This document shows, piece after piece, positions 16,450-18,793 of a stretch of DNA of 24,767 nt. The stretch lies in the NCBI RefSeq assembly GCF_003334785.1, contig NZ_QOWV01000030.1; one strand, given 5' to 3'. The notes beneath the pieces were generated by a model, which was not told the DNA's origin, ran no database searches, and saw only the letters and a list, made by a program, of their open reading frames with translations. The stretch comes from Escherichia coli (GTDB lineage Bacteria > Pseudomonadota > Gammaproteobacteria > Enterobacterales > Enterobacteriaceae). The translations under genes and the position numbers were made by a program. Position 1 is the stretch's first letter, and every line of letters begins with the position of its first letter.

Positions 16450-18552
16450 TTACTCAAATCTCCACGCAATATTCATGCCGACACCATAATTTCGTCCGGG
16501 CGAAGGTTCGTAATATCGCCCGTTTGACTCATTGACAATGACAGAACCAACGTATTCTTTATCGAATAAATTATCGACACGACCAAATAAATCCACAGTT
16601 AAATTGTGGTAATTGTATTTATACCCGGTGAATAAGCCGACGAGAGTATAAGACGGCGCTTTTGCCGTATTTTCATCATCTGCCATAATATCGCCCATAT
16701 AACGCGCTTCCGTGCCTGCATACCAACCATCTTCCGGTACATAACCTATCGACGCAAAGCCCATATTACGGGCGATCCCTGGCATCCGATTACCGTTACA
16801 ATCCTGTTCATTGCAAACATTGCTGCGATAGGTCGCATCAAGCCAGGTCCAGGACGCGTTTACGCGAAAATCTCCTGCGAAACGTTGATCCCATGCCAGT
16901 TCAGCGCCTTGACGACGGGTCTTTCCGGCATTTTTGTAAGTCGTACGCCCACCGCTACTGCTATCGACAACAATTTCATCATCAGTGTCGGTCTGAAACA
17001 ATGCGAGACTAAGCAGCCCATCACCAATACGCGTTTTACTGCCGATCTCAATTGTATCGTTGGTGGATGGTTTTAAACCTAAGTTCATACCGCTTTGCCC
17101 ATCAGCACGATAAGACAGCTCATTAATCGTCGGCGTTTCAAAACCTCGCCCGGCTGCCAGATAGATATTCCAGGCATCGGTCATTGCATATTTTAACGAA
17201 CCGGCAGGTAGCCATTTATGATAACTGGCATCACCGCTGTCATCGCCGTTACCCGGAGTAACGTAATGGTCGTTGGAATCAAACCACACGGAGCTGTAGC
17301 GCACGCCAGCATCCAGCGACAGTTTTTCGCTCAGCTGCCACTGCGTCTGTAAATAGGGATCGATGTTCCACATCAGATTGCGTTCGTCGCGACGCAACTC
17401 ACCTTTTTGCCCGTACTCCGGCATGCCGCTATTCAGGCGGAAGTTATTGTAGCCCTTGCGGTTTTCACTCATGTTTTCGTAGTTCAGGCCGGTAGTGAAC
17501 GTGACCGGAACGCCCAGTTCACCACGGTGTGTCCAGCGGCTGTCTATTCCCTGGTAATGGCGTTGCAGGGTAATCACGCCGCCCGCATGTGACGGGTTAA
17601 GTTGTGGTGCCATGGGTATTGACTGGTACTGGGTCGTTTCTCGCTCTCCGGCATACATCATCACACTCATATCATCCCGCGAACTCAGGCTACGCTCATA
17701 GCGCAACCCAGCCTGAGTTTGCTTGATGGTTTTTCGCGTGTCGTACTGTTCTGCACGAGGCGCTTGTTGTGGATTAGCCTTCCATTCTGCTTTGGTTAGC
17801 CCACCTGGGTCATCTGCTTTGATATCCACACTATTGAAAATCAGACTTAATTTGCTGGCTTCATCAATGCGTACGCCCAGTTTGGCATTGGCTAAATTTT
17901 TCTGTGCGCCACTATGGTCACGATAGCCGTGGGTCGTAAAACGCGTGGTTGAGACGGTGTAATCGACATCGCCAGGCTGTGTGCCGTCTCCCGTTGCGCC
18001 CGTTGCTTTCAGCCCATAGCGCCAGCTGCCAAAACTGCCGTAGTAACTACTGGCTTCAATGGTTGGTGGCTGTTGTCCGGTCTGGGTGGTGACATTCATT
18101 ACCCCACCAGACGCGTTGCCATACAGGGCAGAGAAGGGGCCACGCAGCACTTCCACATTTTGCACACTGCTTAAATCGATGTTGGATGTTTGCCCTTGCC
18201 CGTCGGGCATGGTGGCGGGAATACCGTCCACATACAGGCGAATACCGCGAATACCGTAAGTGGAGCGGGAGCCAAATCCGCGAATCGACAGCTGTAAATC
18301 TTGCGCATAGTTCTGCCGGTTTTGTACCTGCAAACCAGGCACGCCGGTCAGTGATTCGGACAAGTTAATGCGCGGTGTTGCCAGGCGCATCTCCTCGCCA
18401 TCCACCACGCTTACTGCTGCTGGGGTATCCAGTTCTGAAACCACCTGCGGTGCGGCACTGACAATCATAGTCTGTTCATCAGCGGCAAAAACAACGGGGG
18501 AAAGGACAAGCAGTGCGGGCAAAACGGTCTGTCGGACGGAAAAAATCTTCAT
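16450..18552 (-). CDS. yncD: TonB-dependent outer-membrane receptor YncD, 700 aa
   Basis: Signal peptide (MKIFSVRQTVLPALLVLSPVVFAADEQ), TonB-box-like TMIVSA, a plug domain, and the C-terminal terminal-Phe beta-barrel signature (...NIAWRFE). Confidence 0.9.
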   Translation of the reverse strand: MKIFSVRQTVLPALLVLSPVVFAADEQTMIVSAAPQVVSELDTPAAVSVVDGEEMRLATPRINLSESLTGVPGLQVQNRQNYAQDLQLSIRGFGSRSTYGIRGIRLYVDGIPATMPDGQGQTSNIDLSSVQNVEVLRGPFSALYGNASGGVMNVTTQTGQQPPTIEASSYYGSFGSWRYGLKATGATGDGTQPGDVDYTVSTTRFTTHGYRDHSGAQKNLANAKLGVRIDEASKLSLIFNSVDIKADDPGGLTKAEWKANPQQAPRAEQYDTRKTIKQTQAGLRYERSLSSRDDMSVMMYAGERETTQYQSIPMAPQLNPSHAGGVITLQRHYQGIDSRWTHRGELGVPVTFTTGLNYENMSENRKGYNNFRLNSGMPEYGQKGELRRDERNLMWNIDPYLQTQWQLSEKLSLDAGVRYSSVWFDSNDHYVTPGNGDDSGDASYHKWLPAGSLKYAMTDAWNIYLAAGRGFETPTINELSYRADGQSGMNLGLKPSTNDTIEIGSKTRIGDGLLSLALFQTDTDDEIVVDSSSGGRTTYKNAGKTRRQGAELAWDQRFAGDFRVNASWTWLDATYRSNVCNEQDCNGNRMPGIARNMGFASIGYVPEDGWYAGTEARYMGDIMADDENTAKAPSYTLVGLFTGYKYNYHNLTVDLFGRVDNLFDKEYVGSVIVNESNGRYYEPSPGRNYGVGMNIAWRFE

Positions 18553-18690
18553 GAAAAAAGCCAGGTTAAGAATGGGAAAACGCCGTCATGGTAATGAAAT
18601 TGTAAATTTATGGAAAATGAAACGGCACAATACGTTAAGTAATTGAGAAAATTGTAGTCGTAACGGCAAGAAATGCTCCACATTTGAGAA

Positions 18691-18709
18691 AATAATGATT
18701 ACCATTCCC
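18691..18709. promoter_or_regulatory. Candidate Fur box in the yncD-yncE divergent promoter region
   Basis: AATAATGATTACCATTCCC matches the 19 bp Fur consensus GATAATGATAATCATTATC at 14 of 19 positions, including a contiguous ATAATGAT core. About 85 bp upstream of yncE and about 140 bp upstream of yncD. Confidence 0.4.
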
Positions 18710-18793
18710 ATTTATAACAAGAGCGTAACGATGATTACGCTTAGCGAAGCATTGTGAAGCAGCAAAAATATCGGTTCATCAAAGGGAGTCGTC

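Follow-up and report, generated by a model that had tools for sequence, protein, structure and literature searches.

The window analysed here, a stretch of 24,767 bp of E. coli K-12-like sequence, contains at 18553-18793 a gap of 241 bp from which the open reading frames of yncD and yncE diverge. The 801 bp around this gap have exact (100%) matches in several complete genomes. Of 5426 complete E. coli genomes, 5412 contain them, with the flanking genes annotated as pqqU and yncE. A window position equals the NC_000913.3 position minus 1,504,513. The preliminary description had placed both reading frames, the 241-bp gap, a Fur-box-like 19-mer at 18691-18709 and a 7-6-7 inverted repeat at 18722-18741, and all of these coordinates are correct. 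The two genes are the following.

16450-18552, minus strand: pqqU (yncD), 700-aa open reading frame, TonB-dependent outer-membrane PQQ importer; pqqU in RefSeq
18794-19855, plus strand: yncE, 353-aa open reading frame, secreted seven-bladed beta-propeller protein

The yncD product scored 1311.7 bits with the NCBIfam equivalog model TonB_rec_PqqU (cut-off 1200) and the yncE product 561 bits with the NCBIfam model 7_blade_YncE (cut-off 400), which assigns each protein to its family. The remark that the substrate of YncD is not evident has been overtaken by the literature, in which YncD is PqqU, a TonB-dependent PQQ importer. Its import substrate is PQQ, not iron, and a PQQ-uptake phenotype is absent in a yncE deletion (Grinter & Lithgow; Hantke & Friz). 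In one further report (PMC10187895) yncD and yncE appear merely as markers at a replication terminus peak, which has no bearing on the Fur question.

For the comparative analysis, a scan with one genome per species gave 80 yncE loci in the Enterobacteriaceae. The divergent yncD-yncE layout is present in about 65 of the 80, with gaps of 235-270 bp, while nine Citrobacter species or genomes carry yncE with no adjacent yncD.

Fur operator and promoter of yncE

The features on the yncE side of the gap that bear on transcription and on the start of translation are listed here.

18677-18682, plus strand: yncE -35 element TCCACA, within the conserved CTCCAC(A/T)TT (65-76 species)
18691-18709, either strand: Fur box (operator) AATAATGATTACCATTCCC, identified by consensus, matrix, conservation and published ChIP-exo
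18700-18705, plus strand: yncE -10 element TACCAT, conserved, TACTAT in most species
18782-18788, plus strand: yncE Shine-Dalgarno sequence AAGGGAG, read from the sequence, nearly invariant in the alignment
18794-18796, plus strand: yncE start codon ATG, read from the sequence, nearly invariant in the alignment

Compared with the Fur consensus GATAATGATAATCATTATC, the 19-mer AATAATGATTACCATTCCC matches at 14 of 19 positions on the plus strand and at 15 of 19 on the minus strand. It was the top site when the whole window was scanned with the consensus, and a match of at least 14/19 occurred at just 4 of 49,498 strand-positions. We also used a Fur weight matrix trained on the best sites from 15 other Fur-controlled intergenic regions of K-12 (fhuA, fepA-fes, fepD-entS, fepB-entC, fiu, fhuE, tonB, cirA, exbB, feoA, sodA, fecA, fhuF-yjjZ, sufA, and ryhB). 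The site at 18691-18709 scored 17.1 bits, the highest value in the window, and the runner-up, at 15.0 bits, lies 6 bp to its right at 18697-18715; the best score outside the gap in this 24.7-kb window was 12.2 bits. When each true training site was left out in turn, the scores ranged from 8.9 to 22.9 bits, a range that includes the yncE site, and when the gap was shuffled 2000 times under a first-order Markov model, 17.1 bits was reached 8 times. The consensus, matrix and shuffle results together show that the Fur match exceeds chance.

Conservation of the site is high. The core (A/T)TAATGATTA(C/T)TATTC(T/G/C)CA, represented in E. coli by ATGATTAC, is nearly invariant among 65-76 Enterobacteriaceae species, whereas species differ freely at the six bases on its left side. 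Across 65 species, 15 of the 19 columns of the box are at least 90% conserved, and only the columns at 18703 and 18708 vary freely. By our reading, 18703 would be the unconstrained central position of a second unit under the 7-1-7 model. Together with the match in the +6 register (15.0 bits), which gives the box an architecture of overlapping repeats, this pattern is what would be expected of a functional Fur array that probably spans 18690-18715 in overlapping units with a 6-bp register.

The block CTCCAC(A/T)TT is nearly invariant in the same 65-76 species and stands at a fixed spacing of 17 nt from the yncE -10 element. A yncE::gfp fusion in pXG10 starts at ATTTATAACAAGAGCG, that is, at window position 18710 (PMC8896160, supplement). 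The Fur box covers the -10 element TAC(C/T)AT and extends to the predicted start at about 18710. Inserts in pXG10 conventionally begin at the mapped transcription start site, so that the fusion points to a yncE start near 18710 and to a Fur box at approximately -19 to -1. A start at 18710 leaves just 4 nt after TACCAT, a short gap. A scan with the sigma-70 consensus returned a single minus-strand site, a number at the level of chance; the hexamers of the conserved yncE promoter are too weak to have been picked up.

As an alternative -10 element we considered TATAAC at 18713-18718. Although attractive in E. coli, it was set aside for two reasons: its conservation ends with Escherichia, Citrobacter, and Kluyvera, and transcription from it would begin inside the covarying stem described below. 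Use of TATAAC as the -10 would suit the MarA site that RegulonDB lists at -41.5, provided that GCTCCACATTTGAGAAAATA is the marbox. The MarA site upstream of yncE was not recovered by Reg-Seq.

Published data agree with the position of the operator. Binding of Fur upstream of yncE, from ChIP-seq, and altered yncE expression in a fur mutant have been reported for MG1655 (PMC4676285) and for CFT073 (PMC7157518). The ChIP-exo peak P54 of W3110 (1,524,928-1,524,940; PMC10164565, Dataset 2) corresponds to window positions 18701-18713, 81-93 bp 5' of the yncE ATG at 1,525,021, and the MG1655 peak P44 (1,521,238-1,521,250; PMC10164565) converts to the same 18701-18713. The MG1655 peak is given on an older coordinate version and was shifted by +1,976 for the conversion; in the MG1655 sheet the gene columns are one row off from P37 on, and they were re-paired by coordinate. 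RNA-seq from the same study gave log2 ratios of fur deletion to wild type for yncE of 3.10 in MG1655 and 8.14 in W3110, where expression rose from 18 to about 4,550 units (PMC10164565). Both Fur iModulons include yncE. A Fur box at yncE and an iron-dependent de-repression of up to 18-fold were already reported in 2003 (McHugh et al., as cited in later papers).

With the highest matrix score in the window, the conservation, and ChIP-exo peaks from two strains that fall on it, the proposed Fur site at 18691-18709 is a genuine operator. It has every sequence-level property of an operator that we examined, and the experimental evidence for yncE is in the literature. The gene is strongly regulated by iron and Fur, and this part of the finding has been known since 2003. 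When iron is present, Fe2+-Fur would occupy the yncE -10 element and start site (18690-18715) and block RNA polymerase; in its absence yncE would be de-repressed 9- to 280-fold, depending on the strain.

The arrangement resembles that of the classical Fur-repressed promoters. At fepA-fes, fhuA, cirA, ryhB, and sodA, as at yncE, a 19-bp AT-rich box covers the -10 element and the start, and in both cases the box is made of overlapping hexamer or 7-1-7 units and acts in a Fe2+-Fur-dependent manner. The box of the ryhB promoter, GAGAATGATTATTATTGTC, is almost identical to the yncE core AATGATTA(C/T)TATT. Nothing essential differs between the two, except that YncE is without a demonstrated role in iron uptake and that the divergent neighbour of yncE encodes a PQQ importer, not a siderophore receptor.

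The inverted repeat in the yncE leader

Downstream of the predicted start, AGCGTAA-cgatga-TTACGCT at 18722-18741 forms an exact 7-6-7 inverted repeat. In a single genome such a palindrome is at chance level: a perfect 7-bp inverted repeat with a spacer of 3-10 nt occurred in 11% of shuffled gaps, and the density of such repeats in the window is 0.2 per 241 bp. It becomes significant only because of its covariation across species, from which the following feature was defined.

18721-18742, plus strand: yncE 5' leader RNA hairpin, 7-8 bp stem and 6-nt loop CGAUGA, from RNAalifold and covariation

The stem was recovered by RNAalifold from an unguided MAFFT alignment of 76 leaders. Its arms are poorly conserved, and each position changes together with its partner across species. 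All seven stem pairs are altered on both sides, and pairing in the two helices, with the 7-pair stem counted, was 95.8% and 93.8%. The stem cells comprise 400 Watson-Crick pairs, 56 G·U pairs on the plus strand and 12 A·C pairs in 46 distinct stems, among them AGCGTAA/TTACGCT, GGCAAAG/CTTTGCC, CGCAAAG/CTTTGCG, GACAAAG/CTTTGTC, CGCGGTG/CGCCGCG, and TGAAGTG/CATTCAC; as the sequences are related, these covariation counts overstate the number of independent events, with at least ten distinct stem types represented. The covariation score is 0.494, compared with at most 0.168 when the partners are slid by 1-3 columns, and none of 500 shuffles reached it. The loop is better conserved than the stem and follows C-N-A-N-G-A, with CCAUGA in 35 and CGAUGA in 12 of 73 sequences. 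Folding of the E. coli leader on its own gave the stem a pairing probability of approximately 0.98.

Arms that stay paired while their sequence varies, together with a bias towards G·U on the plus strand, argue that the yncE leader folds here into an RNA hairpin. Under selection for protein binding to the DNA, the sequence itself would be kept and G·T would bring no advantage, and an RNA from the minus strand would produce the opposite bias. Judged by this comparison, the palindrome is best described as a transcribed RNA hairpin that would occupy about +12 to +33 of the yncE mRNA, and it does not behave as the DNA control site that its inclusion in the control region had suggested.

That the repeat is nonetheless a DNA operator, either for a second dimeric factor or as a weaker Fur site past the yncE start, is very unlikely. 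The perfect 7-6-7 symmetry would suit such a role, the right half, AACGATGATTACGCTT, is similar to the Fur core, AATAATGATTACCATT, and the repeat matches the Fur consensus at 12 of 19 positions on the minus strand. However, pairing is kept (95%) through 46 differing stems, the mismatches are chiefly plus-strand G·U (56 as against 12 A·C), a distinction meaningless for recognition of double-stranded DNA, and the frequency of such palindromes in shuffled gaps is as given above. As for Fur, the ten best matrix scores in the gap go down to 2.1 bits, and none of them falls within 18715-18750. With matrix scores of at most 7.8 bits, neither the palindrome nor the yncD promoter was accepted as a second Fur site.

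We give almost no weight to a role of the hairpin in intrinsic termination or attenuation, whichever strand is considered. A consensus scan did rate it terminator-like when read on the minus strand, with 8 pairs followed by CTTGTTATAA, but one such site compares with 0.5 expected, and the wobble bias points to the plus strand. The stem has just 3 G-C pairs and lacks a real or conserved T-run on either side, so that the G+C-rich stem followed by a U-run that defines these terminators is missing, and the high expression of yncE passes through the hairpin.

It is also extremely improbable that the ATG in the loop opens an upstream reading frame that controls yncE. This ATG is found in 59 of 73 distinct sequences, and in E. 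coli it would begin a frame of 8 codons (ATG at 18731 to TGA at 18757) whose end at a conserved TGTGA is common to E. coli and Citrobacter. In the other 14 of the 73 sequences, however, AAG, AGG, or ACG replaces the ATG; indels past the stem alter the frame and its length in Enterobacter and Klebsiella, and the sole bases resembling a Shine-Dalgarno sequence are buried in the stem.

With a permissive threshold, Rfam models searched against 18400-18950 gave only unrelated eukaryotic or viral hits with E > 1, and no family was matched. The closest likeness that we can draw for the hairpin of the yncE leader is to the 5' stem-loop of ompA, which is also a short, stable stem-loop near the 5' end of an mRNA and also shows compensatory changes. 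The yncE hairpin differs in its conserved C-N-A-N-G-A loop, in being absent from Rfam, and in beginning about 11 nt from the predicted 5' end, a distance too great for a classical stem that protects the 5' end. A pairing of the loop with the region of the start codon and early codons was considered and dropped: a full complement of the loop 6-mer was present there in 2 of 63 sequences; complements to 5-mers were present in 32 of 63, in shifting places, and were absent in Enterobacter.

A conserved block complementary to RyhB

Three nucleotides past the hairpin begins a second conserved element of the leader.

18745-18763, plus strand: candidate RyhB pairing site, predicted to pair with RyhB nt ~41-60, UUGCUCACAUUGCUUCC
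18758-18769, plus strand: (ARN)4-like run, after the RyhB-complementary site

This block, which is complementary to the single-stranded core of RyhB, has the sequence GCGAAGCATTGTGAAGCAGC in E. coli; most other species have GGAAGC(A/G)ATGTC. With the RyhB sequence of MG1655, the duplex at 18745-18763 has an energy of -20.1 kcal/mol, a value for the local duplex that ignores the cost of unfolding both RNAs, and a duplex as good was found in 34 of 12,372 background windows (top 0.3%). Duplexes of short windows were used throughout, as RNAduplex or cofold calculations on full-length RyhB and leader inflate long-range pairings. The complementarity is conserved: in about 70 of 79 loci the aligned block pairs with RyhB at -19 to -31 kcal/mol, 44-56 nt before the ATG, as would be expected of a direct RyhB target.

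That RyhB acts on yncE is well documented. It raises yncE translation and mRNA approximately 3-fold, as seen by Ribo-seq, lacZ fusion, GFP fusion, and qPCR; yncE is a major RyhB partner in RIL-seq and MAPS, and both Fur binding and RyhB dependence of yncE have been described in MG1655 (PMC4676285). The published CopraRNA/IntaRNA estimate for the RyhB-yncE pair is only about -5 kcal/mol, so that the pairing register proposed here should be read as a prediction, and the literature examined reports no compensatory mutations, pairing site, or mechanism for RyhB-yncE. The conserved complementarity makes 18745-18763 a good candidate for direct pairing with RyhB.

Since Fur represses yncE, and RyhB, itself repressed by Fur, activates it, the three form a coherent feed-forward loop, as at cirA. 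Under iron limitation yncE would be transcribed, and RyhB, freed from Fur, would pair beside the leader hairpin and boost the mRNA. The hairpin probably serves to present or stabilise a docking site for RyhB and Hfq. The three loci that are without the RyhB block (L033, L035, L039) are also without the hairpin, a joint loss that fits a single unit. We therefore put forward, as a tentative proposal, that the hairpin at 18721-18742 and the RyhB block at 18745-18763 may constitute one previously undescribed cis-module required for RyhB/Hfq-dependent activation of yncE.

The validated RyhB-activated targets with which yncE has been grouped are shiA and cirA. All three share repression of transcription by Fur and an increase in expression upon pairing of RyhB in the 5' leader. 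Activation of shiA and cirA has been mapped experimentally, to the opening of an inhibitory structure or to the countering of Hfq. At yncE, in contrast, neither RNAalifold nor single-sequence folds showed a conserved pairing of the RyhB site with the Shine-Dalgarno sequence. If the proposal is true, the yncE leader would be a structured docking platform, unlike the mechanism of shiA, which acts against an inhibitory structure.

The predicted pqqU promoter and the question of co-regulation

On the other side of the gap, the conserved blocks lie at 18588-18639, and the segment 18588-18616 holds the most conserved of them in 65 species. It contains the following elements.

18616..18611, minus strand: predicted yncD -35 element TTTCCA, in a conserved block, with a 17-nt spacer
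18593..18588, minus strand: predicted yncD -10 element TACCAT, in a conserved block
18602-18616: CpxR-like repeat GTAAA-N5-GGAAA, within the predicted yncD promoter

No Fur-like site was found near these blocks, where the best matrix score was 7.8 bits. We infer that pqqU has a separate promoter near 18588-18616 that is without a Fur site.

The preliminary description had proposed that the two genes are co-regulated in response to iron. The part of this proposal that concerns yncE stands, as shown above; the part that concerns yncD depends on the strain. Without fur, yncD rises in W3110 (log2 2.95, p 2.7e-51) and in 042 (log2 2.02), whereas in MG1655 its change of 0.12 is not significant (PMC10164565), and YncD/PqqU has been stated to be neither Fur- nor iron-regulated (Grinter & Lithgow; Hantke & Friz). 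The rise in the W3110 and 042 fur deletions indicates some coupling in some strains.

The simplest account of such coupling would be a single Fur operator that co-represses yncD and yncE and so links receptor and propeller protein alike to the iron status of the cell. Besides the rise of yncD in W3110 and 042, several observations favour it. The ChIP-exo peak was assigned to both transcription units in W3110 (PMC10164565), and a Fur peak of CFT073 is listed for yncD_1 and yncE (PMC7157518). Co-purification of yncD with yncE in MAPS has been attributed to overlapping 5' UTRs, which would imply a further, distal yncD promoter whose transcripts cross the Fur box. A weak promoter-like sequence on the minus strand, TTCACA-16-AATCAT at 18758..18731, would read through the box in this way, but one such match is no more than chance would give (0.8 expected). 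Set against these observations are the flat response of yncD in MG1655, the published statements that it responds to neither Fur nor iron, and the nature of the cargo, which for PqqU is PQQ and not iron. The geometry also disagrees: the box at 18691-18709 would not reach both core promoters, its centre lying about 120 bp 5' of the conserved yncD blocks at 18588-18616, where there is no second Fur-like site.

What is more, the operator is not confined to loci in which the two genes are adjacent. The nine Citrobacter loci in which yncE has no adjacent yncD retain the yncE -35 block, the Fur box, the hairpin, the downstream block, and the ribosome-binding site, while all of the conserved blocks of the yncD side are lost. 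The box thus belongs to yncE, and we regard a single operator shared by both genes as improbable. Most likely, the 241-bp gap holds two separate promoters approximately 120 bp apart rather than one shared switch. The rise of pqqU in fur mutants would then most likely be indirect, caused by the very strong divergent transcription of yncE or by spreading of Fur; negative supercoiling behind a highly active yncE polymerase, for example, may lift pqqU in W3110 and 042.

We are fairly confident of the arrangement as a whole, that is, a Fur operator serving yncE alone, a leader hairpin beside a candidate RyhB site, and a separate pqqU promoter. Its new content is modest and comes from sequence comparison: the palindrome is recast as an RNA hairpin with covarying arms, and yncE gains a conserved candidate site for RyhB, where the published prediction gave weak pairing. 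The result is a correction more than a discovery. A Fur box beside the gene of a TonB-dependent receptor invites the reading "iron transporter, co-regulated pair", which here is wrong twice, as the receptor is one for PQQ and its gene shows no Fur response in MG1655. To this the comparison adds a physical explanation, in that the promoters are two, 120 bp apart, and the box travels with yncE. The gene is among the most strongly Fur-repressed of E. coli, and its product is a vaccine and diagnostic antigen; the leader module offers a handle for studying its control.

The yncD-yncE pair has much in common with fepA-fes, fepD-entS, and fepB-entC, which are likewise divergent pairs with a Fur site in the gap and a TonB-dependent receptor as partner. 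In those pairs transcription in either direction responds to Fur, from start sites that overlap or lie near each other. At yncD-yncE, by contrast, about 120 bp separate the promoter blocks, and yncD is unresponsive in MG1655.

Control of yncE where yncD is missing or damaged

In nine Citrobacter species an adjacent yncD is absent, and yncE there retains the complete promoter and leader module. In these loci from the cross-species comparison (L008, L009, L012, L013, L017, L019, L020, L024 and L079), the region upstream of position 3001 holds other genes or terminator-like hairpins. The uropathogenic strain CFT073 is a further example of yncE control being kept without a functional yncD: its yncD (c1876) is given as an N-terminal fragment, a pseudogene, while yncE remains strongly Fur-repressed, 147-fold (PMC7157518 supplement). 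In E. coli strain EC6 (pig; NZ_CP182398.1) an IS5-family element of 867 bp is inserted at window 18567-18571 with a 5-bp TAAGA duplication. It separates the start codon of pqqU (yncD) from the predicted pqqU promoter, and the yncE side is undisturbed.

The following features lie on the yncD side.

18407-18443: MG1655 Fur ChIP-exo peak P43
18454-18472: Fur-like sequence nearest to P43
18588-18639: conserved yncD-side blocks ATG(G/T)TAA, TGTAAA, TTGAAAA, TAAC.GCAC and CGTTAA
18602-18616: CpxR-like direct repeat GTAAA-N5-GGAAA, inside these blocks

On sequence grounds the blocks are compatible with the predicted minus-strand promoter, and in most species they include an inverted TTAAC-N10-GTTAA. 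According to a CpxR regulon paper, both yncD and yncE are CpxR-responsive.

Leader hairpin and alternative pairing

In Pseudescherichia vulneris and two relatives (L033, L035, L039) a deletion about 60 nt before position 3001 takes out the hairpin of the yncE leader together with the block complementary to RyhB; the Fur box is retained, as is the ribosome-binding site. The hairpin loop, CGAUGA (18729-18734), is the exact complement of UCAUCG in yncE codons 7-9 (18813-18818) and is partly complementary to GUCAUG at the yncE start codon (18791-18796). When 36 nt of coding sequence were added, the predicted minimum-energy fold favoured this alternative over the leader hairpin. This pairing is weakly conserved across species.

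Other Fur peaks and Fur-like sites

After coordinate conversion a second MG1655 Fur ChIP-exo peak, P43, falls inside the pqqU coding region, at its 5' end; it is absent from the earlier Seo dataset. The Fur-like sequence closest to it, GGCACTGACAATCATAGTC, reaches only 6.8 bits with the Fur weight matrix. Elsewhere in the window only GATAGTTATCACCATTATT, at 21539-21557, agrees with the Fur consensus at 14/19 positions; it scores 11.0 bits.

In the MG1655 sheet of PMC10164565 Dataset 2 the gene and locus-tag columns stand one row off the peak coordinates from P37 on, where the tonB row label is missing, and are realigned by about P105. Taken at face value, the shifted sheet gives the yncE peak (P44) the label adhP.
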